A stretch of DNA of 64,000 nt from Patescibacteria group bacterium (GCA_041661625.1 JBAZUB010000003.1:69004-133003), one strand, 5' to 3'; shown: positions 1 through 35,645, counted from the first letter of the stretch. The notes: generated by a model from the sequence alone, not told the origin. A program made the numbers and translations.

Positions 1-2143
1 TCTGCCGGAGATCTTGGTGCGCGAGGATCAAACCCAGCCGGTACTTCCGTGCACCCGAGAGGATCTGCTCCATCGTCGGCGTGATGAAGTTCTGGAATTC
101 GTCGATGTAGACGTAGAACGGGCGGCGCTCGGCTTCGGCCACCTCTTGACGGCTCATTGCGATCTGCTGAAGCTTGGAGACGAGGAGACTGCCGAGAAGG
201 TGCGCGTTCTCCTCGCCGATCGCACCCTGGGAAAGCCGAGCGAGCAGGATCTTCCCCCCGTCCATCATCCGGCGGAAGTCGAGACGATCGTCCTTCTGCG
301 CGACCATGTACCGGATGAGCTTCGGCCGAAGGAAGGTATCGAGACGGGTGAGGATAGATGCCTGCGGGCTCCCTCTGAGGAGGGAGAACTCCTTCTGCCA
401 GTAGTACACGACGTCAGGATCGCGAACGGTTGCGAGGAATTCTTCTCGGAAACCCTTCTCGACCAGGAACCGACGCAGATCGATCAGAGTCCCGCCCCGG
501 TCGCTTTCAAGGAAGGCGAGGATCGCGTTCCCGAGGACCGATGTCATCTGATCGCCCCACGAGGTGGAGAGTCTCCGGAAGACGGAGGCGAGATCGGAAG
601 AGAGGAGCGTCTTTTCGAGTTCTGAGTGCGCCGAGAGGATGTTGAACCCCACCGGGAATTCGGCATCGGCCGGATCCAAGAGGATGACGTCGTCGATCCG
701 TTCTTCCGGCACTCGCTCCAGGATCTGGTCGATGAGATCACCATGCGGATCCAGAACGGCGATACCCTGGCCTGTCTTCAGATCCTGAAGGATGAGGTTC
801 AGAAGGAGCGTGGACTTCCCCGTGCCCGATGCGCCGATGACGTACATGTGCCGTGATCGCTGGTCCGCAGTGAGCGCCACTTGCGCGGTTTTTCCGGCGT
901 GGACATTCGCGCCGAGGAGTAATCCCTGTCCGGTGGCAATTGCCGGTGCGGCCCGTGTCTTCCGTTCCTCGCGTTTCAGTTTCTCGACACGCACGGAGGC
1001 CGAGGGCGGGTGAACCAGGGAGACGAGCTCCTCAGTCGAGAGGATCATTCCGCTCCGATGGCTCTTGCGGAGCAACAAATCCGACTGGTGCTCGGCGTCA
1101 TCGTACCCGTCGTTTGCTAGCGGCATGAACTCGTTCCCGGCCGGGTTGGCGAAGCTTCTGAGGCTACCACCGACCGCGCGGGCGATCTCCCAGGCGCGAC
1201 CCAGGTCCGGGCTCTTCACGCCGATCCGAACGACCGCCGCGAGGAGTGGATGCGCGATCTTGACCTTGGCAGCAGCGGCGATCTCCGGTGCATCCTCGAA
1301 GAAAGCTTTCCCCTCGTGATCCAGAACCGCCCGCATCATACTCTTGGCCCACGGATGACGGACCGCCTGGAAGAGCACTTGCACGACGGCTACTTCACCC
1401 ATTTCGAGGTCCGAATGCGCCGAAACGACACCGATCAGGGGATCGATCTCGAAACCCTTGAAGGTGCGAAGCGGCAGCATGAATTCGTGGGAGAGCCCGA
1501 AGTCGACCAAGATCGCGGCTCCATCCGGCGACGCTTCCCAAGTCGACCGGAGGAAGTCGTTCTCCTGGGTCAGAACGACTTCGGGAAAGTAGCCCTTGAG
1601 CTGCTGTGACACCTTCGCCGCGTCGGTCTCCCGAACGGCCAAATGGACCATGATCGAATCAGGTAGGCCGACGACCTCGAACGACAGCGGGCCGGCCGCG
1701 ATCGGAAGACTCGCGAGAAACTGCTCGACCGCCTCCCGAGAGACTTTGAGCGGAGGAGGGACCGAAAGCTTCAGTTCGACGATCGGGGAATCGTCATCAT
1801 CAACCTCGACTTCCGGCGTCTCGGGCTCCAGTTCGTCGAAATCCCACGACACCGTTGGCCGACGCTTGCCGGTGACGATCCGTTCGATACCCTCCGTGAT
1901 TCGGGAGACGAGCGTGGGTCTGCGTCCATCGTCGGTCCCCGGATCACGCGGCGGCACCCAGTGGTACCTGAACGGGACGAATGGCGGCTCGAGTTCGACC
2001 GGAAACGGGTGGAGAAGCCATCCTCGGCCGCGCTTCTCCCAGTCGTAGAACTGGGTGGTGAGACGTTCGACCTGGCTCGGTGCATATTCGTCGGCCGAGG
2101 TCTGGTCATCCTCCCAGGGGACGATGTCCCGTTCGTCCACCAT
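1..2143 (-). CDS. P-loop ATPase of the VirB4/VirD4/HerA(DUF87) conjugative-transfer superfamily; partial, C-terminus runs off the window start
   Basis: Manual minus-strand translation: ATG at 2143-2141, 8 bp after the stop of the upstream gene. Walker A is MYVIGASGTGKST (about 811-847), followed by VLDPHGD, then Walker-B-like YVYIDEFQNF (about 100-130). About 380 aa of N-terminal domain precede the P-loop, as in VirB4. Not in the ORF track because there is no in-window stop. Confidence 0.7.
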   Translation of the reverse strand, partial: MVDERDIVPWEDDQTSADEYAPSQVERLTTQFYDWEKRGRGWLLHPFPVELEPPFVPFRYHWVPPRDPGTDDGRRPTLVSRITEGIERIVTGKRRPTVSWDFDELEPETPEVEVDDDDSPIVELKLSVPPPLKVSREAVEQFLASLPIAAGPLSFEVVGLPDSIMVHLAVRETDAAKVSQQLKGYFPEVVLTQENDFLRSTWEASPDGAAILVDFGLSHEFMLPLRTFKGFEIDPLIGVVSAHSDLEMGEVAVVQVLFQAVRHPWAKSMMRAVLDHEGKAFFEDAPEIAAAAKVKIAHPLLAAVVRIGVKSPDLGRAWEIARAVGGSLRSFANPAGNEFMPLANDGYDDAEHQSDLLLRKSHRSGMILSTEELVSLVHPPSASVRVEKLKREERKTRAAPAIATGQGLLLGANVHAGKTAQVALTADQRSRHMYVIGASGTGKSTLLLNLILQDLKTGQGIAVLDPHGDLIDQILERVPEERIDDVILLDPADAEFPVGFNILSAHSELEKTLLSSDLASVFRRLSTSWGDQMTSVLGNAILAFLESDRGGTLIDLRRFLVEKGFREEFLATVRDPDVVYYWQKEFSLLRGSPQASILTRLDTFLRPKLIRYMVAQKDDRLDFRRMMDGGKILLARLSQGAIGEENAHLLGSLLVSKLQQIAMSRQEVAEAERRPFYVYIDEFQNFITPTMEQILSGARKYRLGLILAHQDLRQ

Positions 2144-2151
2144 CGTTCATC

Positions 2152-2862
2152 CTACCTGCGCAGAAGATCCCGCATGATCGGCTTCTTTTCGTCCTCGGTC
2201 ATCGCCCTCAGGCCCTTCGCCGTGGTGACAGCGTCGATCGACTCGTTCACCGCCGCGCTGACGGCGGACTGGAACATGAGTTTCGTGTCGATACGGTAGT
2301 AGGTCTCGGGGCGGAAGAAGTGCTCATATAGAGGACCTAGAAGCGGGACAGCCAGGATAGGGTCATCCGGATCCATGTCGAAAAGCCGTGTGATCCCTCG
2401 ATAGATAAGGTAGACCACGATGATCGTTGCCAGCGTGATGAGCAGCCGGATGAGCAGGCCTGGTCCATAGCGGTGGAACATCTGAACCCACAGGCGGGAG
2501 ACGACCTTGCCGACGCCGCTGCGAAGAACGAAGTATCCGATGATCGCACCAAGCAGGATGGCCCAGCAAAGGACCCGGTTCGGCCGTTTCTCGCCGAGCC
2601 ACCAAGAAAAGAAGTACCCGGTGCCGTAGGGTGCCGCGCAGAGGTCGAACGCCAGCTTCTGGCGGGTGAAGCGAAGGTACTCACGCTTGGCGGAGAGCGT
2701 CCCGCCCTCGTGGAGGTCGACCCGGGATACTGAGACGTCCGGAATCTGACGCTGTTGCACGGCGGCCTCGACCGAGGCGTAGAAATCCATGGCCGAAGTT
2801 TGGAATCCATCGAACGGCTTGTGCCAGTGCGAGAACATGTTGGCCAGCAAGGTCTTCGCCAT
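2152..2862 (-). CDS. Polytopic membrane protein, unknown function; co-oriented and nearly contiguous with the downstream ATPase
   Basis: 236-aa ORF with several hydrophobic helices (WAILLGAIIGYFVL, LLITLATIIVVYLIY). Its stop lies 8 bp before the ATPase start. Confidence 0.55.
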   Translation of the reverse strand: MAKTLLANMFSHWHKPFDGFQTSAMDFYASVEAAVQQRQIPDVSVSRVDLHEGGTLSAKREYLRFTRQKLAFDLCAAPYGTGYFFSWWLGEKRPNRVLCWAILLGAIIGYFVLRSGVGKVVSRLWVQMFHRYGPGLLIRLLITLATIIVVYLIYRGITRLFDMDPDDPILAVPLLGPLYEHFFRPETYYRIDTKLMFQSAVSAAVNESIDAVTTAKGLRAMTEDEKKPIMRDLLRR

Positions 2863-3124
2863 CTCCCCTCCCCATTGTGAACCGACAATCTCGATTAGGC
2901 ATTTCCCAGGCTAGTCCCCGACGCGCCGCAACGCAACCGCCAAGTGTTGCCCGTACCTAGACTCCCACTCCCCGTACTCCGGGACCGCGGAACAGAGGAA
3001 GGCAGAAGGCGGTGTCGTCGAAAACGAGGGAAAGAGCCCCTCGTTGGGGATGGGGAACGGTACTCCCAAAGAGCCGAGGAAGTCGGAACTACCGGGGGAC
3101 GGCGCACGACTATATTGAAGTCCG

Positions 3125-4294
3125 CTAGCTTCTCTTGAAGAGCAGGACATGCTCATGGGTTATTCTACTATTCCGAACATTGAACGAGCGCTTCGTCGCC
3201 TGAAGCGTACGAATCCATCTCTCTTCCAGAGGCATACCATGATTTCGAAACAGTTTGATGAATGTGTCACCCACAGGCACAGCGCGCTTATTGACGATCG
3301 CATCTCCGACAACAAACAAACACCTGCCACCCGGACGCAACACCCTGGACCACTCGCGCAGGCAATTCTCCATATCGGTAAAGTACTTGTCTGCGGTGGC
3401 CTTCGGCCGGGTGAACTCGTCGTGGCTTCCAATCTCGAGGTCACGAGCAAATGCGACGTCCCCGTCTAACCAGTGAATGCGTTGGCGGTGATACTTGTGA
3501 TAGTCATAGGCGTTCAGGTAAGGAGGCGATGTGACGATCAGAGTCACGCTCCGATCCCGAATGAATGGCACTTTGCGGGCATCAGCCAGCTTGAGTGTCA
3601 CTTTGGCGCGCGGCCCTCGTGGAGCGTCATCCAACCTTCTTACCGTGTCCAGCAGTCGAAGACGGAACAGCGAACCGACGTCCGCAACGGTCACGTCTCG
3701 TGGCACTCGCGCATATCTTGTGTCGCTATCCTGAAAGGAGACGCGCACAATAATGGACGAAAAGATGGACTGAAGCAAAACCTTCTCGGGTTGTTTCTCG
3801 CTAAGTATCAGTCCTTTGAGAGCCGCGAGCCGGTCCATGATGTCCTTGGTGAACCAATAGGGAACATGGTCGTTGCTCGGTATCAACTCCGGCCGGGCAA
3901 CCGCTGCAGTCAGCCAGTTCTCTACGGACTCTGCAAAGATCCGTAAACGGCTGATACTGCGCTTTGTATAGTGAAGAGTCTTGGCTCGGCTCACCAGTAT
4001 AGCAATGTCGTTATTGTCTGTCCCGATTGACGGCCGTCCAAGAATGCTGGCCTCGAGCAAGGTAGTACCGCACCCGCAAAACGGGTCGTATACCAGTTCT
4101 CCGGGCTTGCTCCACTGCTCGATCGCCTTTCGCGGTATCTGCGGAATAAACCGGGCAGGATAGGGATGCAGAGAATGAAGGTGCTCCTGCGTGTCGACAC
4201 CATGGAAATTCCAGCCCTTCCCGTTTGTGACGAGAGCGCCTTCATCTGCTGTTGTGTATATTGCTCGGCGTTCCATGGTTATGCTTTGAAACAC
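3125..4294 (-). CDS. SAM-dependent DNA amino-methyltransferase (N6A/N4C type)
   Basis: Motif-X-like HPYPARFIPQIPRKAI, motif I DPFCGCGTT, motif IV IVTSPPY. Overlaps the upstream MTase gene by 16 nt. Confidence 0.7.
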   Translation of the reverse strand: MFQSITMERRAIYTTADEGALVTNGKGWNFHGVDTQEHLHSLHPYPARFIPQIPRKAIEQWSKPGELVYDPFCGCGTTLLEASILGRPSIGTDNNDIAILVSRAKTLHYTKRSISRLRIFAESVENWLTAAVARPELIPSNDHVPYWFTKDIMDRLAALKGLILSEKQPEKVLLQSIFSSIIVRVSFQDSDTRYARVPRDVTVADVGSLFRLRLLDTVRRLDDAPRGPRAKVTLKLADARKVPFIRDRSVTLIVTSPPYLNAYDYHKYHRQRIHWLDGDVAFARDLEIGSHDEFTRPKATADKYFTDMENCLREWSRVLRPGGRCLFVVGDAIVNKRAVPVGDTFIKLFRNHGMPLEERWIRTLQATKRSFNVRNSRITHEHVLLFKRS

Positions 4295-5898
4295 AAGATT
4301 GTCTCGGCCGACCCCCGATTCTCCCGAAAGATATCACGCGACACTAGCAGCTCCATCGGGATCATTTCAAGGCCCTTCCAGCCAACCTGTTGTCCAATCG
4401 CAAACAGGAATCGGTCGGTAGGAATCTCCACCTTCTCACCGTTTACGGTGCTGCTGTTGTTCCCGACTACATAATACGCGTAGCTCCCCGGGGCCATGAG
4501 TGATCGCGCTGAGCGCATGGCATCGCTCATGGCGAGGAAGTATCGAGCCAGCAACGAGGGCAGGTTACGTCTACGAAAGCCGACATCCGGACCGTGGTTG
4601 TGCGACGCAATTCGCTCGATCAGTGAGATGGTTTCGCGAGGCAGTTCCTTCTTTCGGGTCTCGAACTGGCTCCATCCCTGGAGTCGTTCCTTGTCAGTGA
4701 TCTCTCGCGTGCCTACCATCAAGCTCTCAACATCCCCATGGCGTTGTCGCGAGAGGAGGCCAAGGACGACAAGGCTAAGCCTATCCGTGTCAATGTAAGG
4801 CAAGGCTGTCGCGTATGGAGGCGACGTCACCAGCAAATCGACCTTCCCCACATACTCGGGGAAAAGCTCATCAAGTTGCACCGCGTTGCCCTGCACGACT
4901 TTGAGGGTTCGCTTTCGGGACCGTGGAAGTACACAGAGGTACGGATAGATCCGGTCGGTCTGCTCCTCCACCTGGGTCCGAAACTTCTCCAGTGCTGCTC
5001 CCTGAAGATACGGTCTGACGTCCTTACGAACGCGGAGGTCCACCTCCTTTTGCCAGGATACTGAGCGCACGATCTCGCTCAGGCAGACTCGTAGGAAATC
5101 TCGGTAGAGAGCGGAATCGACTCTTTCTATGCTTCGTAAAATAGCCGCGATGTCCTTGAGGGCGGGTTCTGCAAACCACCGGCGCAGGTACGCAAGATCG
5201 TGCCCTTGCCAGAAGTGGTCGGGTTCGGAGTCCCGGAACTTCAGTTTGCGAAGGTATGCGTCGATGGTCTCGGCGAACACCTCGGGGCGTTCGCGGACAA
5301 TGCCAGCTTTCACCTTGGCAATAAGGACCGAGAGCGGGTTCAGGTCCGCTGCCAAAGCGGCGCGGCCGGCTGCTACTGTCTCGCATGGTGTTGTGCCGCT
5401 GCCGCACATCGGATCGAGGACTAGGCCGTCATCCGGCACCCCGGATATGTTCATCAGACTGCGAACGAGTTGGGGGAAGAACTTCCCCCGATATTCATGC
5501 AGGTCGTGAGGCCCGTAGCGAAGCCTTCGTGCCCGGTGAAGTTCGGTCTTCTCCGTGGTGCTCTCAGATCCGTTCTGAGTGAACTCAAGTGCGTTCTGCA
5601 CCGTAGGTTCAAGAACGGTTGTGCCGACCCGTTGCCAGTAGGTCAGGCGTTCCCGGAAGTACTGAACAGGTCGTCCTGAACGAACAAGGTGAAGGCCATA
5701 CTTCTCGGCAACCGGGCCGTCTCCCTGGAGAAGGGCTTGCAGTTCGCGAGTGGCCAGCTCGCGCTCGAATGGTTGGAGATAGGGTTTCATCTCAAACTTC
5801 AGTGAGTCCTTGTCGTTGGCGAGCAGCAACGGAGGGAAAATCGAAAATCTCCGCTGAATCATGTTCGCGATATCTATTGGCATCATGCGTTTTGGCAT
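4279..5898 (-). CDS. SAM-dependent DNA amino-methyltransferase (N6A/N4C type), second copy
   Basis: LHEYRGKFFPQLVRSL then motif I LDPMCGSGTT, motif IV LLVTSPPY. 539 aa. Overlaps both neighbouring genes by 16 nt. Confidence 0.7.
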   Translation of the reverse strand: MPKRMMPIDIANMIQRRFSIFPPLLLANDKDSLKFEMKPYLQPFERELATRELQALLQGDGPVAEKYGLHLVRSGRPVQYFRERLTYWQRVGTTVLEPTVQNALEFTQNGSESTTEKTELHRARRLRYGPHDLHEYRGKFFPQLVRSLMNISGVPDDGLVLDPMCGSGTTPCETVAAGRAALAADLNPLSVLIAKVKAGIVRERPEVFAETIDAYLRKLKFRDSEPDHFWQGHDLAYLRRWFAEPALKDIAAILRSIERVDSALYRDFLRVCLSEIVRSVSWQKEVDLRVRKDVRPYLQGAALEKFRTQVEEQTDRIYPYLCVLPRSRKRTLKVVQGNAVQLDELFPEYVGKVDLLVTSPPYATALPYIDTDRLSLVVLGLLSRQRHGDVESLMVGTREITDKERLQGWSQFETRKKELPRETISLIERIASHNHGPDVGFRRRNLPSLLARYFLAMSDAMRSARSLMAPGSYAYYVVGNNSSTVNGEKVEIPTDRFLFAIGQQVGWKGLEMIPMELLVSRDIFRENRGSAETILCFKA

Positions 5899-6911
5899 TG
5901 TGACACGTGATATGAAGCGTTGATCGCTTCGATCGGTGTCTTGTCGGATCCAAATGGCAGAGGGATGTCCCGCATTTGAAAAGCGGGAATATCCATCGGC
6001 AGCGTCCTCAAGTGTGATCGATATGCGGCCAGCCTGTCCGAACCAGCGGCGCGTATGGCGTCGTCCGTCTCTCTCAACAGGAGCGTCTCTACCTGGGCCG
6101 AAACCAGTGGCGAATGGATCGGTTTATCGCGAGCCGTTCTCTTAGCCGTGCCCATATAGGCGTCGATCTTGCCAGAAATGGCGAAGTCGCACCATCCGAT
6201 GGGAAGTGCGTCCGCGCAAGCAGCGATGATAGTGCCAATCCCCGGAGGGAAGAGCTCGGCATGCTCCAGTACCAGTAACGCTCGCAGTCGGAAATACTCC
6301 ATACTGATATATCCCAAACGAGGGCACTTTGCCGGGGCGACGATGTCAGTGGCAAGGTCTTCAGCGAGAGTTGGTGTCAGTTGGCCTGCCGAGCGAATGA
6401 CCTCGACGGCCAGCGCCATGGACAGGGTGAGTTCCGATTTCATTCGATGCCGTAGCATCGTCGCGCTGACGTCCTTGTCGTAAATCAGCCCGTCAGTTTG
6501 CCGCTTGTTCAGCAGAAGCGCGGAGTACCTAACGTGATCGATGCCGTTGGGGCGTAGCTGGCGCTCGATCCACCATCGGGTATGAATGGCATGGATGGTT
6601 GGTTGGAGGTACTGTCCTCCGAAGTGGTATAACTGATTGCCGTATTGTTCTGAGTAGGCAACTGGGACATCGTTGACCGTGAGAAGTTCCTCCATGATGC
6701 CGAGCCAGTCGTGCCGAATGTGTCCATCCAATACCAGGTCGATGAGCGACGCCTGCAGGCAGACGGAAGCGGCTGCCAAACCGTGGTCAGCCTGCTGGAT
6801 TGCATTCTCGCGCCATTCTTTCAGGTAAGCGGCATGGATTGGCAGAATGAAGCCCGGAGCTAGCGTGATCTGGGGTGTAATAATGTGTTCAGGCATTGTA
6901 AAAAGCCGCAC
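5883..6911 (-). CDS. Hypothetical protein, 342 aa, third gene of the 4-gene overlapping operon
   Basis: Long ORF, translationally coupled by overlap on both sides. No motif recognised. Confidence 0.5.
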   Translation of the reverse strand: MRLFTMPEHIITPQITLAPGFILPIHAAYLKEWRENAIQQADHGLAAASVCLQASLIDLVLDGHIRHDWLGIMEELLTVNDVPVAYSEQYGNQLYHFGGQYLQPTIHAIHTRWWIERQLRPNGIDHVRYSALLLNKRQTDGLIYDKDVSATMLRHRMKSELTLSMALAVEVIRSAGQLTPTLAEDLATDIVAPAKCPRLGYISMEYFRLRALLVLEHAELFPPGIGTIIAACADALPIGWCDFAISGKIDAYMGTAKRTARDKPIHSPLVSAQVETLLLRETDDAIRAAGSDRLAAYRSHLRTLPMDIPAFQMRDIPLPFGSDKTPIEAINASYHVSQCQNA

Positions 6912-8475: not shown

Positions 8476-8797
8476 AGCATCTGTTCCTGTTTAGTATTAA
8501 TAGCCGGCCTGATCCGACCATTCCTTGGCGAAGACGCCGGATATGCTACTGGTCCAAGGCGACCGCCTGTCACCCCTCATGTCGAATCTTCCTGAAGCCC
8601 CTCCAAGCCCATCCCAAGGACTGGGTCGGAATGGCGCGCCGCAGGACATCGGAAGTGGCGCAAGTTACAAAAAATCATCAGCTTACGCCTCTTTATCATA
8701 CCGATTTGTTCGAGCCTAGTCAATCTGCCACAACTCCGTAAGTTAGCGCAACTCAATAGAAAGAGGCTGGTCCTTCGGGGAGCAGCCTCATGGTGGA

Positions 8798-9526
8798 TCA
8801 GAGCGCGAGTGCGCTCCGGAAGGTGCTGGAGAGTCGGAGCCCGGAGTCCATTTGGACCCGCGGACTCCGGGACTTGCTGACTTCGGTGAAGGCGTTGTAG
8901 AGCGACCAGGCGGTCCGGGGAGCAAACTCCTCGTGGGCGGGCGTCTCCCACGCCTCGATCACCTTCGGGAGGTTCGAGGCTGGCAGGACGTCCTGCCGGA
9001 CGGCCTCGACCATGAGGTGGTCAGCCGCCTCGACGGAAAGCTCAAGCGCCTTCATCGCCACGATTTCGGCGTGGATCCGGCTCTGCATTGAGGAGACCTT
9101 CGAGAGCATGCGGTAGATCAGGTCCGGAAGATCCCGAAAGATGTTGATGGTGTGCCTGCGGGTCGCGGCGGCCTCTCCAGAGAAGGCGAGGTTGTCGCAG
9201 ACGAAGACGTGGTGGCCGGCGGTGAGATTTGCAGAGAGGGACCGGTCGTAGCTGTTTCGGAGACCGATCGCGAGGGCGTAGTCGGCGTGCTTCCCGCCGT
9301 TCCGGCAGGTCAGTACCCCGAACATCTGGGCGCCGTCGCGGGCAAGCGCGTAGCAGGCATCGGTGATCGTGAGGCCGAAGCGCGGAACATGGAGTTCGAC
9401 TTCCTCGACGAACCGGCCGTAGGGCACCGGGACGTAGGAGTCGGTTTCGGAAGGAACAGGGACGGAAGCCAGGTCGGCTTTGGTCGCCTCCCAACCTCCG
9501 CGATGGAGAATGAGCTGACTGGACAT
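8798..9526 (-). CDS. Conserved hypothetical protein typical of integrative/conjugative elements (DUF932-like?)
   Basis: 242-aa ORF containing HHVFVCDNLAFSG. The family assignment is from memory only. Confidence 0.35.
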   Translation of the reverse strand: MSSQLILHRGGWEATKADLASVPVPSETDSYVPVPYGRFVEEVELHVPRFGLTITDACYALARDGAQMFGVLTCRNGGKHADYALAIGLRNSYDRSLSANLTAGHHVFVCDNLAFSGEAAATRRHTINIFRDLPDLIYRMLSKVSSMQSRIHAEIVAMKALELSVEAADHLMVEAVRQDVLPASNLPKVIEAWETPAHEEFAPRTAWSLYNAFTEVSKSRSPRVQMDSGLRLSSTFRSALAL

Positions 9527-9551
9527 GACGGGGACCTTCCTTTCCAGAGTT

Positions 9552-10235
9552 TCAGATCAGACCGCGTTCACGAAACGACAGGTAGGAGCCGCCGGCGCCG
9601 ATGATCACGTGGTCGATGACCTCGATGCCGAGCATCTCGCCGGTGCGGACCAGCCGATGGGTCATCTCGACGTCGTCTTCCGACGGTTCGGGGTCGCCTG
9701 ACGGGTGGTTATGAGCCAGGAGCATGGAGGCGGCCGCCGCCTGGATGGCGGGTCGGAACACCTCCCGAGGATGGACGATCGATGCATTGAGGCTTCCCAC
9801 ACTCACCGTCTCGAACTTCAGGAGGCGGTGCCGGGTGGTGAGCAGAAGCGTGACGAACATCTCGCGCTTCAAGTCTCCCAGGACGGGACCGACGACCTGC
9901 ACGGCGTCCTGCGCCGTGCGGATGATGAGGTTCTGTTCGGTACGAGGAACGGCTGCGCGGCGCGAGAGCTCGAACGCAGCGAGCACCTGGGTCGCCCGGC
10001 GCCGTCCGATCCCCGGGATCGCGACCAGGTCGGCTGTCCCGGCGTCGGCGATGACATCGAGCGAGCCGAATCGGGAGAGCAACGCCGCGGCCGCGTTTCC
10101 GGAGCAGAGCACGGCGGAAAGCAGGCGCGTCACGGGCCAAGACCGGCAGTCTTCCCGACAGTGGATCAACGGGTCCTCCAGCATCGGGATTGCGGGATCG
10201 ATCATGTGAGCCTCCTTCTTCCGGCAAACGCTCAT
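9552..10235 (-). CDS. radC: RadC-like JAB/MPN domain protein
   Basis: N-terminal HhH (LLSRFGSLDVIADAGTADLVAIPGIGRRRA) and JAMM motif LLAHNHPSGDPEPSEDD. Confidence 0.85.
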   Translation of the reverse strand: MSVCRKKEAHMIDPAIPMLEDPLIHCREDCRSWPVTRLLSAVLCSGNAAAALLSRFGSLDVIADAGTADLVAIPGIGRRRATQVLAAFELSRRAAVPRTEQNLIIRTAQDAVQVVGPVLGDLKREMFVTLLLTTRHRLLKFETVSVGSLNASIVHPREVFRPAIQAAAASMLLAHNHPSGDPEPSEDDVEMTHRLVRTGEMLGIEVIDHVIIGAGGSYLSFRERGLI

Positions 10236-10321
10236 GCGTTTCCGGCGGGTTGAGAGATCGCTGGGTAGAGAAAGAGGGGGTCTTCAAGCGAAGACCCCGG
10301 GACGAAGTGGAAGGCGGGCGG

Positions 10322-11080
10322 TTACCCGCGCCACTGTTGGCAATGAGCGAAGTACTCACACTCGGAGCAGCGATACGAAGGATTCGGGAAGCAGCAACCG
10401 GACTGGATAGCCAGAGCCACGCTTTCGATCAGCCGGGCGGTCCAGGCAAGGTCCTCAATTGTGCGGGTGGCAGGCAGGTGCACCAAGCGCGGGACCTTGG
10501 TCTTCAGAAGCGCGTCAATGCGGAGAGGTGGAACCGTTCCGGTTGCGAGGAAACGAACGAGCGCGTAGGTGGAAAGCTGGAGGTGTCGTTCGAGCGAACC
10601 CGTGTCGAAGGTCCGGGCGGCAGTCTTGAGTTCCACGAGCGTGCCGTCCGCCTCGACCAGATCAATCACCCCGCGCAGTCGGATGTCGAACACTTCACCG
10701 GTTTCGGGATCCACGAGGTCGATCTCGAAGCGGTCCTCGGTCAGGAGCGGCATTGTGCCGGATGAATCCGCGACATACAGAGCAACGAGTTCGTGACCCT
10801 TCTCCGCGAGGATCTCCTTGGATTCCTTCTCGGCGAACACCACGGGCTCGAGGTTCTGTGCGAACCAGTCGGCATCGAAGATCTTCGCGACCGCCTCCGG
10901 TTCCGGCGTGCGTCCGGCCAGCCGTTCGCGGTGGAACCACTCTACGGCAGCATGGACGGAAGAGCCGAACACCAGCGCGGCAGGCCGCCAGGGCGGCGGG
11001 ATCTTGTCGATGTACTGGAAACGGTGCTTGAGTGGACAGGTGAGGTAGGTCTGAACCCGGCTAACGCTGAGGGGCTCCAT
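10322..11080 (-). CDS. Cas4/RecB-like PD-(D/E)XK exonuclease with Fe-S Cys cluster
   Basis: N-terminal YLTCPLKHRFQY, core IDLVEADGTLVELK, C-terminal CCFPNPSYRCSECEYFAHC. Overlaps the upstream recT-like gene by 20 nt. Confidence 0.7.
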   Translation of the reverse strand: MEPLSVSRVQTYLTCPLKHRFQYIDKIPPPWRPAALVFGSSVHAAVEWFHRERLAGRTPEPEAVAKIFDADWFAQNLEPVVFAEKESKEILAEKGHELVALYVADSSGTMPLLTEDRFEIDLVDPETGEVFDIRLRGVIDLVEADGTLVELKTAARTFDTGSLERHLQLSTYALVRFLATGTVPPLRIDALLKTKVPRLVHLPATRTIEDLAWTARLIESVALAIQSGCCFPNPSYRCSECEYFAHCQQWRG

Positions 11081-11744
11081 CGGGGGCCTCCTGCAGGAGC
11101 TGGTCGATCGCCTCCGTTGCCCTGGCTTTGCTGACCTGGGTAAGCGTCTCGACCCCGAAGAACTCCTTCAGGTACTCGTGGGCGGCGTCATTCTGAAGCC
11201 CTTGGCCGGCGAGAATCCGGAAGAGATACCGACGCTGAGCTTCGGTCATGAGCGCTCCGTTGCCATTGCCGTTGCCGCCGGGCTGCGGTGTTCGGGGAGA
11301 GGTCCGACCGTTGCCGCGGGCGGCGCGAACCGGCGCGGGTGCAGCACCCGATCCGAGGTCCGATTCACCTGGCGGGAAGCCATCGCCGTCCAGCTCCTCG
11401 AAGGAGACGATGCCGATATTTACGGCATCACGGAGGGCGCGAGCCTTCGCCCGGGTCTCGGCCATGCGGATCAGGTGTGGGACGATGAACGAGTTGACGT
11501 TCTCGGGATTGGCGTCGCCGATCCCGTCGAACTTCCCCTTCTTCGTCTCGACGAGCGCCTTGGCGATCGCCGTCCGGCCGTTCTCGTCCGAGGGGATCTG
11601 AACGAGCCGGGTAGCGATGCGCTGCAAGCCTTCGTCGTGGGCCTTGCTGAGGAGGCCCTGGTAGGTGACCACCTCCTTCGTGCCGACGACGCGGCCGGTC
11701 CGGTCCTTGATCTCGATCGTGCGGATGAGGCCGTTCTGGGTCAT
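11061..11744 (-). CDS. RecT-family single-strand annealing protein (SSAP)
   Basis: Start chosen at the ATG at 11744, preceded by AGGAGG. The RMAETRAKARALRDA helix resembles RecT EMAKKTAIRRL. Paired with the exonuclease immediately downstream. Confidence 0.5.
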   Translation of the reverse strand: MTQNGLIRTIEIKDRTGRVVGTKEVVTYQGLLSKAHDEGLQRIATRLVQIPSDENGRTAIAKALVETKKGKFDGIGDANPENVNSFIVPHLIRMAETRAKARALRDAVNIGIVSFEELDGDGFPPGESDLGSGAAPAPVRAARGNGRTSPRTPQPGGNGNGNGALMTEAQRRYLFRILAGQGLQNDAAHEYLKEFFGVETLTQVSKARATEAIDQLLQEAPDGAPQR

Positions 11745-11950
11745 GGGGACACCTCCTGTTCCGTGGGGGGATTTGGAAAGGGCGGGCAAGACGGAGAGCG
11801 AGTCTCCACCCTTCACGGTACGGGAGGTGGGCCTTGGGACGTAGGGAGGGCGATGCGTCGTTGAGCGCACATCCTGTGGAAAACCCACCGTCGTAAGGCC
11901 TTCACAGAACCGAATGATTATGGTAAGGTTGCTTACCTTGATATTGATCT

Positions 11951-12172
11951 ATGCAGACGATGACAAACGTACCCCAAAACACGTACGCCAACCCGACCGA
12001 CGGCAATACGTACTACCTTGCTTCGCTTGAGGACGGGAACAGCAAGGTTCTTTGGGCGTGTCCGACAAACCGCGACGGCTCGGCTGATTTCGTTTCAGCC
12101 ATCCCGGAAACCGACTTCGCCGAACCGCTCACACCCGATGATCGGGAGCGGATCGTGCGCGCTCTCACATAG
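11951..12172 (+). CDS. Small hypothetical protein (73 aa), opposite strand within a 460-bp intergenic region
   Basis: ORF in an otherwise noncoding gap. No motifs recognised. Confidence 0.3.
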   Translation: MQTMTNVPQNTYANPTDGNTYYLASLEDGNSKVLWACPTNRDGSADFVSAIPETDFAEPLTPDDRERIVRALT

Positions 12173-12207
12173 GAAAGCGCAAGGGAATCGTGAAGACGTG
12201 ATGCGCT

Positions 12208-12732
12208 TCACGAGTTTTGTCGTCTGGATAATTGGACGGCTACCGCAACTGCGAGTGCGTCAAACATATGAAGCCAGTACCTATCCTTGGGCTTGTAGCC
12301 GAGGACGGGATGCGGTGGCTCCTTCGGGAGCTTGATCCGAAGGTCCTCAAAGCCCATGCGGACGATGGCGTGTGCGACGTCGAACTTTTTCGCGTGGCGA
12401 TCACCGACCACGACTCGCCGCACGTCGGGCGGCGCTATCTCCAACACCCGGATGCCGAGTTCGCGAGATCGTGCCTGAAGTTCCTGGACGATCACCGAAA
12501 CGAGAGCGGCGCGTTTCGTAGGGACAAGCAGGGGCTTTTCGATTGCGACGACCGAGGGAGCGTGCTCGGCGACATACGACAGAATCACCCGACGAGCCTG
12601 GCCGATCACGTCGTGCGGCCGTTCTCCGTTGTGGAGGGTGTGGACGCCGAAGCCAAGAAGGGTCGAGCCCGTGATGACCACCGCTCCCATGTATTTCGTT
12701 CCAGGATCGATGCCGAGGATTTTTTCTTCCAT
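12208..12732 (-). CDS. RuvC-like Holliday-junction resolvase (phage-type), copy 1
   Basis: LGIDPGTKYMGAVV, VVAIEKP, C-terminal MFDALAVAVAV (RuvC D/E/D/H layout). Confidence 0.7.
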   Translation of the reverse strand: MEEKILGIDPGTKYMGAVVITGSTLLGFGVHTLHNGERPHDVIGQARRVILSYVAEHAPSVVAIEKPLLVPTKRAALVSVIVQELQARSRELGIRVLEIAPPDVRRVVVGDRHAKKFDVAHAIVRMGFEDLRIKLPKEPPHPVLGYKPKDRYWLHMFDALAVAVAVQLSRRQNS

Positions 12733-12904
12733 TGTTAATTGGCCGTTTAGATGGTGAGTACGAACGGGTTCCCTCCCGAGAGACCGCGACGGTGTGGACC
12801 CGGCTTGCGCGGGTGACCACGATGTCCGCGGCGGCGGTCCGCAAGACGGAAACCGCCTGGCTTTCCAGCCGAAGAATCGGCTCCGGGAGGGCTGTATGAG
12901 TGGT

Positions 12905-13405
12905 TCAGGCGGCCGTGGCCTGATGGTGAAGAGCGAGGGCGACGGCGTCGAACATGTTCTGGAAGTACGCTTCCTTCCAGCGGCGGTCTTGCGTGAGATA
13001 GACCCGCAGGGCGGGCAGGCGTCCGGCGACAGCCTCGGCCGTCTGGCGTTTGTTCGCCCAGCCGTGGCCGACGAGGCCCTTGCGGACGGTCTGGGGCGCG
13101 TATGTCGCGACCGTCAGCCCTTTCAGGGCAGCCATGCGGCGAACCCGACGGGCCAGACGGTCCAGCCGATCCAAGGAGTTCACGCGGTTCGGGTGGGTGG
13201 CTTCAAGGACGACGATCGAGGGTCTGAACTGACCGATCCAGTCGCCGATGGCCTTCACGGCGGCGGGGAGGCGCTGCTTCGATGGCAGCAACCGGAGCGG
13301 GAGGACTCCCGACTCGATCAGGGATCCTCCTCGGAGAATGGCGTACCCGAGGTCCCGGAGGCCGGGATCAAGGGCGAGGATCGTCTTCGCTGTGGCTTTG
13401 GGCAT
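12905..13405 (-). CDS. RuvC-like Holliday-junction resolvase, copy 2 (paralog)
   Basis: ILALDPGLRDLGYAIL, IVVLEAT, MFDAVALALHH. Start reassigned to the ATG at 13405; the track start at 13558 adds an implausible extension. Confidence 0.6.
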   Translation of the reverse strand: MPKATAKTILALDPGLRDLGYAILRGGSLIESGVLPLRLLPSKQRLPAAVKAIGDWIGQFRPSIVVLEATHPNRVNSLDRLDRLARRVRRMAALKGLTVATYAPQTVRKGLVGHGWANKRQTAEAVAGRLPALRVYLTQDRRWKEAYFQNMFDAVALALHHQATAA

Positions 13406-13922
13406 GGCGTTTGAGTAGATAAAGAAATAAAGCTGTGCGTGAGCGGCGGATCTCGGCCGCCGGAACGGCGAGGGTGCCGGCGAGCGCGCGTTTGATGATC
13501 GCGTCGTCGTGGAGCTCAAGCGCCGATTCGAGCGCTCCACGGTCCCCGTTCTCCCCAAGTGCTCGCTCCAGCTTCCCGATGGTGAAGAACCGTTTGATTT
13601 CCGGCGGCGATTCAGCCTGCGCCGGCAGCTGGGGAAGGTGCCGGACAGTCACGCGAACGGTTTGTCCGGAACGCTGGAGCCTCACATAGCGACGCGTTCG
13701 GAGATGGCCAAGCCAGCTTCGGACGGTTCCGTCGGGGAGCCCCATGGCGGAGGCGATCTCCGCCGTGTCCAGCTCCAGCGTGTTCTGGCCGGCGGGCAGT
13801 CGGACCAGAAGTCCGAGGTAGAGCCAGACGGCCGACCGCATCCGGCGGATGTGGAGCGCCTGCGGGTGCTCCAAGAGTCCTCGGTCGAGTCGGATTATAA
13901 TGGGCATCGGGTTTCGGGTCAT
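13368..13922 (-). CDS. Winged-helix DNA-binding protein (replication/regulatory), paralog A
   Basis: HTH IASAMGLPDGTVRSWLGHLRTRRYV. C-terminal motif IRRSRTALFLYLLKRH is shared with the next gene. Confidence 0.5.
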   Translation of the reverse strand: MTRNPMPIIIRLDRGLLEHPQALHIRRMRSAVWLYLGLLVRLPAGQNTLELDTAEIASAMGLPDGTVRSWLGHLRTRRYVRLQRSGQTVRVTVRHLPQLPAQAESPPEIKRFFTIGKLERALGENGDRGALESALELHDDAIIKRALAGTLAVPAAEIRRSRTALFLYLLKRHAQSHSEDDPRP

Positions 13923-14536
13923 AGGTGGCTGTCGATCTTCGTGATGAGGTAGCGGAAGAGAGCGAGCTTGGATTTCCTGATCTTCTCGAGCGGCGTGTTG
14001 CGTACCCGGTCGAGAGCGCGGGTAACATGATCGGGCGAGTGACGAGCGAGGATTGCTGGCAGCTCCGTTTCGACCTCGGGTCCGACAACCTCCCGGGCCA
14101 GCCGCGCCAGCGCCCCTTCCCCCGCACCCCCATCCCCGATAGCTATAGCCTGCTTGCCTGATAATTGCTTAGAACAGCTATTGCTATAGCTATCTTCAAT
14201 ATGTGATCCGGGAAAAGCTTCGGAATTGCTCTGATTCTCGCGCTCCGACGCCACTTCGCCAGACCACGAAACGAGGTGCGCGACAAGGTACGGCAATGGC
14301 GACTGCACGCGCACGAGTCCGGCATCAACGAGGCGAGATAGCCACCGATCGATCCGGTCTTCCTCCACACTTAGCTCCCGGGAAAGGCGGGCGCGGGTAC
14401 GAATCACCACTCCGTGTGATCCCGCGTGACGGATGAGAGCGAGGTAGAGAAACGCGCTGTTGCCGATCCGGTCAACGGGACGAGAAAAGTCGAGCACGGC
14501 GTCGAGAGCGCGGGTGGGAATACGTCGCTCGGTCAT
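13919..14536 (-). CDS. Winged-helix DNA-binding protein, paralog B
   Basis: LSRELSVEEDRIDRWLSRLVDAGLVRV. C-terminal IRKSKLALFRYLITK. Overlaps its neighbour by 4 nt (ATGA). Confidence 0.5.
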   Translation of the reverse strand: MTERRIPTRALDAVLDFSRPVDRIGNSAFLYLALIRHAGSHGVVIRTRARLSRELSVEEDRIDRWLSRLVDAGLVRVQSPLPYLVAHLVSWSGEVASERENQSNSEAFPGSHIEDSYSNSCSKQLSGKQAIAIGDGGAGEGALARLAREVVGPEVETELPAILARHSPDHVTRALDRVRNTPLEKIRKSKLALFRYLITKIDSHL

Positions 14537-14808
14537 CCTTCTTCGTGCTTAGATTTATCCTCACGCTTAGGGAAGTAAAGGGCAGCGTAAAGCGACTCCG
14601 CCAACGTCCCGAGGGATCGGGCCAGGCGGAACACGTTCGGCAGGCTCGGCAGGGAGCAGCCCCGCTCCCAGGCCGACACGATTGGCCGGCTCCTACCGAT
14701 AAGCTTTCCCAACATGGTCTGGGTGAGGCCAGCCCGAAGCCGGTATTCGCGGATGCGGTTCGGAAACCGGGCTGTGACTCTTGATCGGCGAAGGGTGAAT
14801 TGAAACAT
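14533..14808 (-). CDS. XRE-family HTH transcriptional regulator (repressor-like)
   Basis: IREYRLRAGLTQTMLGKLIGRSRPIVSAWERG. Start moved to the ATG at 14808 (MFQFTL). Confidence 0.7.
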   Translation of the reverse strand: MFQFTLRRSRVTARFPNRIREYRLRAGLTQTMLGKLIGRSRPIVSAWERGCSLPSLPNVFRLARSLGTLAESLYAALYFPKREDKSKHEEG

Positions 14809-14874
14809 GTACCAAGAATACAGACACGAACAGAAACCGAACAGAGGGGGTGAGGTGCATAACTGTTCGCCTCC

Positions 14875-14899
14875 TGTGGACAGCGGGCAGATATCCACA
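14875..14899. promoter_or_regulatory. 6-bp inverted repeat TGTGGA-N13-TCCACA in the divergent xre/small-ORF region; candidate operator
   Basis: Read directly from the sequence. Confidence 0.3.
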
Positions 14900-14965
14900 A
14901 AACAAGCCGCTTTCTGGACCTCTCGCACTCTACGACCGTTCCCGGAAGTGTGAGACGATTCGGGC

Positions 14966-15166
14966 ATGAATACCCCAAACGAGCCGTCCGACCATGATGC
15001 CGGGACCATACTCCCCCAGAAAGCAATCGACGACCTCAAGGCGATCTACCGCCGGAAATGCGGGTCGGATCTCTCCGACCATGACGCCAGGGAGATGAGC
15101 AACCGCCTCCTTCGTGTTTTCGCCGTGCTGACGCGCGAACCGACGGACCGGCGAGACCGAGTTTGA
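14966..15166 (+). CDS. Small hypothetical protein (66 aa) divergent from xre
   Basis: ORF only. Cro/antirepressor-like position. Confidence 0.35.
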   Translation: MNTPNEPSDHDAGTILPQKAIDDLKAIYRRKCGSDLSDHDAREMSNRLLRVFAVLTREPTDRRDRV

Positions 15167-15245
15167 ACCGCGTCCACCCGCCTATCTTGACGGGATCCGG
15201 GAGTTAATTCTACACTTCAACACTAAACATCTGACACCTAAGTCA

Positions 15246-16760
15246 TTGCCTTCCTATATCCTCTATGCGCGCAAGTCCTCCGAATCGGAGGATCGTCAAG
15301 TTCTCTCCATCGATTCGCAAGTCCGCGAATTGGAGGCCTTCGCGCAATCCCAGAACTTCACGGTTGCCTCGGTCCTGGCTGAGTCCCGCTCGGCCAAGGC
15401 CCCCGGCCGGCCGATCTTCGCGAAGATGCTCCGATCCGTCAGCCAGGGAAAGGCCGACGGCATCCTCTGCTGGAAGCTCGACCGCCTCGCCAGAAACCCG
15501 GTCGACGGGGCCGCCCTCATCTGGGCGGTCGACGAAGGCAAGCTCCGGGAGATTGTCACCCGGGACCGGGCCTTCCAGAACACCGGGAATGACAAGTTCT
15601 GGATGCAGCTCGAGTTCGGCATGGCCAAGAAGTACGTGGACGATCTCTCCGACAATGTCAAACGCGGCAACCGAGCCAAACTGGAGCAGGGCTGGCTCCC
15701 GGGGCTGCCCCCAATCGGGTATCTGAACGACGCGGTGACGCGGAAGATCGTTCGCGATCCGGACCGGTTCGACATTCTGCGGAAGATCTGGGACGCCGTG
15801 CTGGCCGGTGAGTCTCCCCTCGAAGTGCTTTCGACCGCCACCGACGAGTGGGGGTTACGCACGCGAAAACACCGGCGCACGGGGGGTAAGCCGCTCGGCC
15901 GGAGCAACTTCTATGTCATGCTCTCCAACCCATTCTACTATGGGCTGCTTGTTCGCAACGGTGAGTCCTATCCTGGATCGCACCCTCCCATGATCTCGCA
16001 GGACGAGTTCGACCGCGTCCAGGAGCTACTCGGCCGTCCGAATCGGGCACCGCAACGGCGGCACGAATTCGCCTTCACGGGACTGATCCGCTGCGAGGAG
16101 TGCGGCGCTTCGATCACCGCCGCGGAGACGGTGAATCGGTACGGCTACCACTACGCCTACTACCACTGCACGAAACGGAAGGCCGGCACTTCCTGCAGAC
16201 AGATGCCGATCCGCGAGGAAAAGCTGGAAACACAGATCCGCGAGGTATTGAGCCAGGTGGCCATTGACGACGACTATCGCGACTGGGCTTTGGAGAACCT
16301 TCGGATTGTCCACGAACGGGAAAGCAAGAGCCGGCAAACGGTGGACCGTTCCCTGGACGAGACTCACCGGGACGTTCAGAAGCAGATCGACGCGCTCCTC
16401 CAGGTCCGCCTCCGTGGATTGGTCACCGACGAGGAATATGCCGCCAAGAAGCACTCTCTTGTTTCCGAGAGCCTTCGATTGAAGGAACGCCTCGTCGACA
16501 CCGATGGCCGAGCCACCCGTGGGTTGAAACTTTTCGAGCAAGCGATATTGTTCGCACACCTAGCCCCGAAACGCTTCGCGGAGGGAACAACCGCGGAGAA
16601 GCGCGAGATTCTCATGGCCCTCGGTTCCAACCTCTTGCTCAAGGACAGAACTCTGCGAATCCAACTGCAAAAACCCTTCCACCTGATCGGGGAAGGGCGG
16701 CACAGTATTTCCTGGTACCGGAGGAGGGACTTGAACCCTCAATCCCTTACGGGAACGTGA
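15246..16760 (+). CDS. Large serine recombinase (integrase)
   Basis: Resolvase-domain catalytic region YARKSSESEDRQVLSIDSQ, recombinase domain, zinc ribbon CEECGASI...YHCTKRK, C-terminal coiled-coil region. TTG start. The last about 16 codons are encoded by the tRNA-Leu sequence. Confidence 0.85.
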   Translation: MPSYILYARKSSESEDRQVLSIDSQVRELEAFAQSQNFTVASVLAESRSAKAPGRPIFAKMLRSVSQGKADGILCWKLDRLARNPVDGAALIWAVDEGKLREIVTRDRAFQNTGNDKFWMQLEFGMAKKYVDDLSDNVKRGNRAKLEQGWLPGLPPIGYLNDAVTRKIVRDPDRFDILRKIWDAVLAGESPLEVLSTATDEWGLRTRKHRRTGGKPLGRSNFYVMLSNPFYYGLLVRNGESYPGSHPPMISQDEFDRVQELLGRPNRAPQRRHEFAFTGLIRCEECGASITAAETVNRYGYHYAYYHCTKRKAGTSCRQMPIREEKLETQIREVLSQVAIDDDYRDWALENLRIVHERESKSRQTVDRSLDETHRDVQKQIDALLQVRLRGLVTDEEYAAKKHSLVSESLRLKERLVDTDGRATRGLKLFEQAILFAHLAPKRFAEGTTAEKREILMALGSNLLLKDRTLRIQLQKPFHLIGEGRHSISWYRRRDLNPQSLTGT

Positions 16761-16799
16761 TTTTGAGTCACGCGCGTATGCCAATTCCGCCACTCCGGC
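16713..16799 (-). tRNA. tRNA-Leu (anticodon CAA), 87 nt including encoded CCA
   Basis: The reverse complement gives GCCGGAGTGGCGGAATTGGCATACGCGCGTGACTCAAAATCACG...GGGTTCAAGTCCCTCCTCCGGTACCA. It has a long variable arm and a T-loop TTCAAGT. G1-U72 is a wobble pair at the acceptor end facing the island. Confidence 0.85.
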
Positions 16800-16868
16800 A
16801 TGATTTCTTAAACTTACATTGTCAACGATTTTGCCCAGCACCACTCACTTTGTTCGGATGCTGGGCGC

Positions 16869-16881
16869 GAGTCACGCGCGT
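16869..16881. repeat. 13-nt copy (GAGTCACGCGCGT) of the tRNA-Leu D/anticodon-arm segment, about 100 bp beyond the tRNA 5' end
   Basis: Identical to 16765-16777. The following about 14 nt are also similar to the tRNA. Confidence 0.5.
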
Positions 16882-16945
16882 CTTCCAACTTGCCCCGTAA
16901 CGAACGAGCCTGGCGAGTTCTGTTGCGGGGTTCCCCCCGGGGCTC

Positions 16946-16992
16946 GTCCCGCTCAGCGGGACACGCCCGTCCCCGCCTGCCAAAGCACAGCG
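16946..16992. repeat. GC-rich element: hairpin GTCCCGC-TCA-GCGGGAC plus the 21-mer CCCGCCTGCCAAAGCACAGCG, which is also found next to tRNA-Val
   Basis: The 21-mer at 16972-16992 is identical to 35862-35882. Confidence 0.6.
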
Positions 16993-17127
16993 GCGGGCAG
17001 GTCGATGGCCGCGAGTGAAGCAGTTCACTCGCTATCCCGCACGGCGGGATGCCATCTCGACCCACTCCGGCCTCAATTGGGCAGGATGTATTATGCTCTA
17101 AAATGTGCGATAACGTGTTTGCTGGTT

Positions 17128-35614: not shown

Positions 35615-35645
35615 ACCATTGAAATATATATCAATGTTTTTTCGA

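Follow-up and report, generated by a model that had tools for sequence, protein, structure and literature searches.

A foreign, high-GC integrative element at the 3' end of tRNA-Leu(CAA) in a Patescibacteria chromosome, very probably inserted through an attachment site inside its own serine integrase gene

Two kinds of site-specific integration frame the locus that we describe here. In the tyrosine-integrase islands of the Williams 2002 scheme, DNA of foreign composition inserts at the 3' end of a tRNA gene, the tRNA stays intact, and the integrase gene adjoins it. In elements of the phiC31/Bxb1/A118 type, a three-domain integrase (Resolvase, Recombinase, and zinc ribbon) is encoded at the element edge, and the junctions have a short common core without a long repeat. 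The targeting of tRNA or transfer-messenger RNA (tmRNA) genes by serine integrases has rarely been documented; Mageeney et al. (PMC7192596) found 14 of 297 serine-integrase (S-Int) elements at t(m)RNA genes and wrote of this [quoted passage not shown] The case at hand lies in a 64,000-nucleotide stretch of the genome of a Patescibacteria group bacterium (GCA_041661625.1, JBAZUB010000003.1:69004-133003; hereafter, the window), the left-hand 16.7 kb of which belong to a 23,667-bp element of high guanine-plus-cytosine (GC) content that abuts tRNA-Leu(CAA). We posit that the element's own serine integrase very probably placed it at the outermost 3' end of the tRNA, through an element attachment site (attP) located inside the integrase gene (int), and that the element originated outside the Candidate Phyla Radiation (CPR).

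The element shares with the phiC31/Bxb1/A118 type the domain architecture of the integrase, the position of int at the edge, and the brevity of the common core. Unlike those elements, it targets a tRNA 3' end, and its attP would lie inside the integrase coding sequence, such that integration truncates the protein. Its likeness to the tyrosine-integrase islands extends to the insertion at a tRNA 3' end, the intact tRNA, the adjoining integrase, and the foreign composition, but it has neither a tyrosine integrase nor a tRNA-derived direct repeat of 15 nt or more, and only 6 bp (GTACCA) are common to the junctions. There are precedents for an integrase gene that is changed by integration. In the Myxococcus phage Mx8, attP lies within the integrase gene, and IntP becomes IntX. 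In the SSV1-type archaeal tyrosine integrases, the int gene is partitioned on integration (reviewed in PMC8371274). As in the case described here, integration in these systems splits or alters int, excision restores it, and the targets are tRNA genes; however, those enzymes are tyrosine recombinases, whereas the serine recombinase of the window loses only a 47-residue tail. The tycheposons of Prochlorococcus, of which 27 of 937 have a large serine recombinase (10.1101/2020.12.28.424599), are likewise cargo-carrying integrative elements at tRNA/tmRNA genes in a streamlined genome, but they differ in host phylum, gene content, and composition, and we came across no intragenic attP in that paper. 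An element in the Candidatus Eisenbacteria metagenome-assembled genome (MAG) POMEDNA-B04 (JAXDAY010000028.1) has ten collinear core genes, high GC, and similar tetranucleotide usage; unlike the element studied here, it has a full-length integrase, no adjacent tRNA, and other cargo. Our literature search turned up no account of a serine integrase with an intragenic attP, nor of this integrase clade or element.

The integrase open reading frame (ORF; 15246..16760, plus strand) encodes 504 aa in a truncated, integrated form. It contains Resolvase (PF00239, E = 2.5e-19), Recombinase (PF07508, E = 5e-8), and Zn_ribbon_recom (PF13408, E = 2.7e-11) domains, and Y7, R9, S11, and S14 of the resolvase catalytic domain are invariant in our alignment of the family (alignment A1); with the catalytic motif and both the recombinase and the zinc beta-ribbon domains present, the protein is a large serine recombinase by these domain tests. 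As had been claimed in an earlier note on this DNA, the ORF reads through the 3' part of the tRNA, with an overlap of 48 nt. Residues 1-490 are conserved, and the last 14 aa, YRRRDLNPQSLTGT, come from reading the tRNA gene in antisense. In the same alignment, ten homologues continue past W490 into a conserved tail, W-x-LVDGxRTFFxEHPxLIQWPxFC, which is absent from the window protein. This conserved 47-residue C-terminal tail is lost exactly at the CCA end of the tRNA, and the W490 codon, TGG, is the complement of CCA.

The lost tail, NWYTLVDGIRTFFDEHPDLIQWPRFCV, is encoded at the far left of the element (L005 19820-19740; -6954 in window coordinates). It is 76-77% identical to the tails of homologues and stands 21 bp from the start codon of a 197-aa host gene. 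When the two ends of the element are joined, they yield a 537-aa integrase ORF of normal family length; when the host sides are joined, they yield tRNA-Leu...GGTACCA, then 21 nt, and then the ATG of the 197-aa gene. The right junction (attR) has the core TGGTAC at 16713..16718, the complement of tRNA nt 71-76 (GTACCA), in the context agtatttccTGGTACcggagg (agtatttcc TGGTAC cggaggaggg), and the left junction (attL) has the context ctacctaatTGGTACaccctag (ctacctaat TGGTAC accctagtgg); the core is the only sequence that they have in common. The reconstructed circle junction (attP) is CACAGTATTTCCTGGTACACCCTAGTGGACGG, and the reconstructed empty-site junction (attB) is CCCTCCTCCGGTACCAATTAGGTAGAATAATATC. 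By exact-protein look-ups, the same DNA was located in other assemblies: besides the window, attR occurs in ENA contig k141_157927 and Logan SRR18595301, and attL occurs in two Logan assemblies, SRR18595301 and SRR6484324, as well as in ENA contig k141_58111. The Logan contigs reach 7.97 kb to the left of the window, and within this extension the high-GC DNA ends.

Because joining both ends rebuilds the 537-aa integrase, attP appears to lie inside the int gene. [quoted passage not shown] Recombination between attP and attB would take place within the common 6-bp core TGGTAC, and it would account for three features of the locus: the tRNA is intact; residues 1-490 of the integrase are fused to 14 tRNA-antisense residues; and the last 47 codons of int are 23.7 kb off, next to the neighboring host gene at the opposite junction. 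We infer that the 537-aa integrase, and not the second one on the element, would be the recombining enzyme, and likewise the position of the crossover dinucleotide and the continued mobility of the element.

Does this arrangement recur? We surveyed 49 loci with related integrases in species-representative genomes. In 19 of the 49, most of them in Patescibacteria or Saccharibacteria, the integrase ORF runs in antisense into the 3' end of a tRNA or tmRNA gene and stops 10-64 nt (in one case, 256 nt) into it, and the targets are tRNA-His (6), tRNA-Gln (4), tRNA-Ser (3), tRNA-Ala, tRNA-Arg, and tRNA-Gly (1 each), and tmRNA (3). Where CCA is encoded, TGG is an in-frame Trp codon (9/9, including the window); at the other loci, a Met or Leu codon ends on the last base of the tRNA (11/11). 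Full-length homologues keep a W...V-x-D-V-R-T-F tail. A regular-expression search for displaced tails in the other tRNA-fused loci found one only in L046 (Saccharibacteria), at a distance of ~8.4 kb, and the rest probably lie beyond the 10-kb flank. The 19 parallel cases point to a whole clade with a tRNA-end habit, abundant in Patescibacteria.

Several points weigh against the insertion model. Exact-pattern scans of metagenome contigs for the empty site attB and the left junction gave no match, nor did a scan of viral contigs for the circular junction attP, so that present-day mobility and polymorphism are unproven for the element. The element encodes a second serine recombinase of 663 aa, which could in principle have been involved. 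In the closer subclade, ~90% of the best 120 proteins, some of them on chromosome-sized contigs, keep an intact tail, and ~6% are fused to a tRNA antisense (proportions by eye); the intragenic attP is thus used in the subclade, but the split state is not the commonest there, and integration through an intragenic attP is not the sole, and perhaps not the usual, state. Lastly, the donor proposed below is assigned from a relative whose integrase is only 69% identical.

A broader proposition goes beyond this locus, and we offer it tentatively, as one somewhat more apt to fail than to hold. We speculate that the clade uses the near-universal 3' ends of tRNA and tmRNA genes as attB, with attP at a conserved Trp, Met, or Leu codon; that clipping of the tail is a possible activity switch; and that one such element has here brought defense genes into an ultra-small CPR cell from an Eisenbacteria-like, outer-membrane-bearing organism, possibly the physical host of that cell. 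If this were true, a target conserved across phyla would let such elements cross phylum boundaries, and if the donor were the host organism of the CPR cell, the element would mark a physical association between the two. The genomes of CPR bacteria are tiny, and few mobile elements have been described from them; here, a cleanly bounded, barely ameliorated element with relatives in another phylum brings defense functions (a cyclic oligonucleotide-based antiphage signaling system [CBASS] and methyltransferases) into such a genome. Serine integrases are prized as genome-engineering tools, and the locus offers a testable attP/attB pair for one that would target the CCA end of a tRNA and split its own gene.

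A side observation on this family concerns L067 (SRR22387996), in which a 63%-identical integrase diverges before the Trp codon and then, at 11040-11174, reads through two apparent antisense tRNA 3' parts that are not called by ARAGORN. Possibly it belongs to a related element in the integrated state, the target of which is decayed or in tandem.

The composition of the window is sharply divided. In 1-kb windows of sequence, GC is 0.599 +/- 0.032 over positions 1-16000 and 0.484 +/- 0.047 over positions 17200-63200 (Mann-Whitney p = 6e-9), and the minimum of the left-hand part is attained by only 4 of the 46 right-hand windows. The break that the earlier note had seen is thus real, but its figure of ~65% for the left side was too high: GC is 0.594 for the whole element and 0.484 for the host. 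Tetranucleotide usage, which was normalized for base composition before chunks were correlated, separates the two parts (0.65-0.89 among left chunks versus 0.06-0.52 between left and right chunks), and so does GC at third codon positions (GC3; 0.61-0.83 in the element versus 0.52-0.68 in the host). Composition, both junctions, and the syntenic flanks agree with the note's proposal of a foreign integrative element in a CPR chromosome, and we conclude that the high-GC segment is indeed such an element, with precisely mapped limits and a composition foreign to CPR genomes. Its right-hand part occupies positions 1..16712 of the window, as delimited by the GC and tetranucleotide break, the mapped junctions, and the Logan and ENA contigs; the other 6,954 bp lie further left. 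The boundary does not coincide with the step in GC. The best single change point is at 17,100, and the step is sharpest at ~17,100-17,160, not at 16.8 kb, where the note had put the cliff and the boundary together; the raw step (~17.13 kb) is ~400 bp to the right of the true element boundary, at a 30-bp palindrome. The displacement arises because GC-rich, host-type repeat DNA lies upstream of the tRNA: positions 16800-17127 are 59% GC although they are on the host side of the tRNA.

As to the host, its TopA matches a protein listed by NCBI under a Patescibacteria MAG at 100% identity, and among named organisms Candidatus Kerfeldbacteria come next (~60-63% identity). We compared the window with four CPR relatives whose TopA is 69-76% identical (L008, L010, L012, and L014), and the gene order LCP-der-pth-mfd-dprA-topA-TPR-parB-parA is kept in all four. 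Together, the TopA matches and the gene order indicate a CPR/Patescibacteria bacterium. The low-GC side does carry housekeeping genes, as the note had stated (parA, parB, topA, dprA, mfd, der, ftsA, and ftsZ), and the host parA-parB pair (17397..19030, plus strand), the order of which is syntenic in the CPR relatives, forms the right-hand chromosomal flank. The tRNA-Leu(CAA) gene (16713-16799, minus strand; ARAGORN; Rfam, 56 bits) lies 120-200 bp upstream of parA in 4/4 relatives. It is 92% identical to the tRNA-Leu beside parA in CPR relatives (over the whole length in L008), which argues that it is the host's own gene, and it is intact after integration. ARAGORN, Rfam, and the junction map bear out the note's placement of the boundary at the 3' end of this minus-strand tRNA.

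The left flank is equally that of the host. In the Logan contigs, the element is followed by the low-GC gene of the 197-aa protein, a membrane protein, and then by tRNA-fMet; ENA contig k141_58111 has the same left junction and 4.9 kb more of the flank, with tRNA-fMet and tRNA-Met. Beyond tRNA-Leu in L008, L010, and L012 there is one gene, then tRNA-fMet and tRNA-Met (the L014 contig stops at tRNA-Leu and so shows no further synteny to the left), and two left-flank proteins are 58% and 35% identical to genes beside the tRNA-Met pair in those three relatives. The element sits between tRNA-Leu(CAA) and tRNA-fMet, which are near each other in related CPR genomes.

Where did the element come from? 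Among genomic sequences, the integrase has its closest relative, at 69% identity, in a Candidatus Eisenbacteria MAG; Zixibacteria, Ignavibacteria, Gemmatimonadaceae, and one Patescibacteria MAG come next, with 50-55%. From DUF932 to int, the element has ten core genes that are collinear with those on the Eisenbacteria contig JAXDAY010000028.1 and 40-84% identical to them at the protein level, and the metagenomic Logan contigs L017 and L067 have the same core. The tetranucleotide usage of the element correlates at 0.94 with L017, 0.86 with the Eisenbacteria element, 0.75 with the chromosomal flank of the latter, and 0.36 with its own host; that of the host correlates at 0.72-0.85 with its CPR relatives. 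The element also encodes a type IX secretion system (T9SS) sorting domain, a feature of the outer-membrane-bearing bacteria of the Fibrobacteres-Chlorobi-Bacteroidetes (FCB) group. Judged from these similarities, the element most likely came from an FCB-group bacterium of high GC, similar to Candidatus Eisenbacteria. The earlier note had suggested an actinobacterial donor and a comparison of integrases to find it; that comparison leads instead to Candidatus Eisenbacteria and other FCB-group genomes, and the T9SS sorting domain speaks against an actinobacterial source as well.

Could the element instead have long resided in CPR bacteria as a mobile element that happens to be rich in GC, without any recent transfer from another phylum? 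Genomes of Patescibacteria and Saccharibacteria abound in related serine integrases, often at tRNA/tmRNA 3' ends; the element is identical in at least three assemblies; and NCBI files the gene with the T9SS domain under a Patescibacteria MAG. However, the CPR-borne relatives are only 33-54% identical, whereas those in Eisenbacteria, Zixibacteria, Ignavibacteria, and Gemmatimonadaceae reach 50-69%; the Eisenbacteria element has a collinear core; tetranucleotide usage matches that element and its flank, with correlations of 0.27-0.69 for CPR genomes; and a T9SS sorting domain would be pointless in a cell that lacks an outer membrane. We consider a native CPR origin unlikely.

The 663-aa recombinase offers another route to the same insertion. 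This second large serine recombinase, with two C-terminal helix-turn-helix (HTH) domains, is encoded ~1-3 kb to the left of the window (L005 13865-15856) and adjoins the coupling-protein-like ATPase gene described below. If it, or illegitimate recombination, had inserted the element, the split of int would be incidental. But the break falls exactly on the conserved Trp codon, the point at which 19 further members of the family are fused to tRNA or tmRNA 3' ends, and integrases normally adjoin their own att site, so we regard this route as very unlikely compared with insertion by the 537-aa integrase.

A classical tRNA island, in which 20-50 nt of the tRNA are duplicated, the 3' end is supplied by the element, and a G1-U72 pair is the scar of replacement, is scarcely credible here. 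The element does abut the tRNA 3' end, an integrase adjoins it, and the wobble pair is present in the window tRNA-Leu. The 20-50 nt direct repeat that the note had expected is nevertheless missing: searches with the last 26 nt of the tRNA (up to 3 mismatches, in the window) and local alignments in the element and the left flank returned only chance-level matches, and the second att site is marked not by a tRNA copy but by the displaced 3' end of int. With only the 6 bp TGGTAC common to the junctions and no longer repeat, the site is as predicted for a serine recombinase. Both recombinases of the element are of the serine type, and no tyrosine recombinase (Phage_integrase) was found in Pfam scans of the window ORFs or in the precomputed Pfam matches to the left of the window. 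The note's G1-U72 observation stands, but its reading as a trace of att-site reconstruction does not: the closest relative, L014, has the same pair without the element, and both junctions carry the T, so that the wobble is not an integration scar and is probably native.

The least tenable explanation, to the point of being negligible, is the assembly chimera that the note had allowed for, in which a high-GC contig was joined to a CPR contig via the tRNA sequence or the palindrome: tRNA genes are classic chimeric join points, the compositional break is deep, and the three Logan k=31 contigs that reach the palindrome, which come from runs SRR18595301 and SRR6484324, all terminate or begin within it, but a perfect 30-bp palindrome breaks a k=31 de Bruijn graph by itself, so that these contig ends are uninformative, and a MEGAHIT k141 contig (ENA ERZ27249449) crosses attR and the palindrome, syntenic CPR DNA bounds the high-GC segment on both sides in several assemblies, and the halves of one integrase gene stand exactly at the two junctions.

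The palindrome itself, CGTAGGCGAACAAGCGCTTGTTCGCCTACG (17128..17157), is perfect and terminator-like, lies upstream of parA, and is followed by a T-rich tail. As a candidate att site or chimeric joint, it was rejected: it lies outside the element on the host side of the tRNA, and the true junctions are elsewhere. Between it and the tRNA is the GC-rich, hairpin-rich intergenic DNA (16800..17127), which is of host type and resembles other host intergenic segments. Nor do we count this DNA with the element: two degenerate tRNA-Leu fragments, both from the 5' part, are embedded in it (17040-17071, tRNA positions 1-31; 16869-16888, tRNA positions 16-35), it adjoins the native upstream flank, which matches L014 at 17068-17086, and it has a sibling beside tRNA-Val. 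A 21-nt identity links 16972-16992 with 35852-35872, adjoining tRNA-Val, and CCCGC-N3-GCGGG hairpins are common to 16800-17127 and the segments flanking tRNA-Val at 35.5-36.0 kb. At tRNA-Val(CAC), as at tRNA-Leu, a 5' fragment (35492-35510, 18/19 matches) precedes the intact gene. A GC-rich hairpin insert with a preceding tRNA 5' fragment is thus seen at both Leu-CAA and Val-CAC (16800-17127; 35492-35645; 35815-35960). The GC-rich insert is absent from the CPR relatives, and Rfam searches of the GC-rich segments found nothing except tRNAs; the inserts could be a small tRNA-targeting repeat element or the scar of one. On the other side of the tRNA, the minus strand at 16675-16705 has a hairpin (CCCUUCC...GGAAGGG) followed by UUUUU, 16 nt past the tRNA CCA and supplied by the element. 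The integrase is encoded across this hairpin on the other strand, and the fold has a z of -1.8 only; it could be the terminator of the tRNA after integration.

Within the window, the remaining genes of the element are mostly on the minus strand. Next to int is a small 66-aa ORF (14966..15166, plus strand) with no Pfam match; ORFs of 61-69 aa occupy the equivalent position in L015, L017, and L067, and it is a candidate Cro-like protein or directionality factor. An Xre-type HTH regulator follows (14533..14808, minus; PF01381, E = 5e-11), and then two winged-helix-like proteins of 205 aa and 184 aa (13368..14536, minus), which are conserved in L015, L017, and L067; the 205-aa protein has a weak match to a phage replication-initiator family (phrog_270, E = 1e-5). 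Next come two RuvC-like resolvases (12905-13558 and 12208-12732, minus; PF02075; phrog_159) and a 227-aa protein with an overlapping PD-(D/E)XK nuclease (10322..11744, minus; nuclease PF12705, E = 4e-30). The note's list of mobile functions on this side is largely borne out by Pfam (integrase, Xre, exonuclease, RuvC-like proteins, RadC, and ATPase), with the exception of its RecT-like protein: Pfam, PHROGs, and PDB sequence searches gave no RecT or ERF match for the 227-aa protein, for which a role as a single-strand annealing protein is possible but unconfirmed. The core ends with RadC (JAB domain plus HhH) and a DUF932 protein (8798..10235, minus), the latter 84% identical to that of the Eisenbacteria element.

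Beyond the core is cargo (3125..8475, minus): unknown proteins of 528 aa and 342 aa and type II DNA methyltransferases of 539 aa and 389 aa (Pfam; PADLOC MTase_II, E = 1e-52 and 2e-50), which may form a restriction-modification module. An unknown 236-aa protein (2152-2862, minus) separates this cargo from an ATPase that resembles type IV coupling proteins (T4CP) and FtsK-HerA; 714 N-terminal residues of its 1044 aa are encoded in the window (2143 down to 1, minus, and on beyond the window), and its Pfam domains are TrwB_AAD_bind, T4SS-DNA_transf, and TraG-D_C. To the left of the window are the second serine recombinase, a NucC-type effector with a CD-NTase, a secreted NHL-propeller protein that bears the T9SS sorting domain, and the int tail. 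The effector and CD-NTase constitute the CBASS (PADLOC Cyclase, E = 2e-91; NucC-type endonuclease effector, E = 2e-78; SMODS and AGS_C domains). PHROGs searches with ten proteins and the Pfam lists, which left out the smallest ORFs, gave no phage structural genes; the only terminase-like PHROGs match is a weak P-loop similarity of the ATPase to a terminase large subunit. Among the proteins scanned there is no relaxase and no VirB4, only the T4CP/FtsK-HerA-like ATPase, and the element thus lacks a full type IV secretion system. From this gene content, the element looks like a mobilizable or plasmid-like integrative element that carries defense genes. GC falls from ~0.60 to ~0.55 beyond the second recombinase, which suggests that the element may be composite. 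Among the ENA contigs, L069 11340-11502 has 28 differences in ~160 bp from L005 13179-13341 (window -478 to -316), the two being otherwise identical; the two contigs overlap there in the stretch for the proline-rich linker at the C terminus of the T4CP-like ATPase, and the differences reflect either local microdiversity or a second copy of the segment.

Some further observations concern the host chromosome. In the left flank, outside the window, there is an exact 37-nt copy of the 3' part of elongator tRNA-Met (L069 3416-3452), ~350 bp downstream of that gene and followed by another GC-rich hairpin, and the relatives L012 and L008 have GIY-YIG genes between tRNA-Met genes; this suggests that the tRNA cluster of the left flank is a repeated target of small mobile DNA. 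Within the window, a region of low GC (38500-50000, 0.37-0.44) downstream of tRNA-Val could be another variable region; it contains ORFs without a Pfam match (38581-39252, 40489-41076, 41861-42361, and 43008-43481) and also encodes three class I S-adenosylmethionine (SAM) methyltransferases. Further right, at 51323-55837, a host gene with a GC of 0.55-0.60, above that of its surroundings, encodes a 1504-aa protein with an N-terminal domain like that of type IV secretion system (T4SS) pilins (PF18895), followed by Big_5 and TIG domains.

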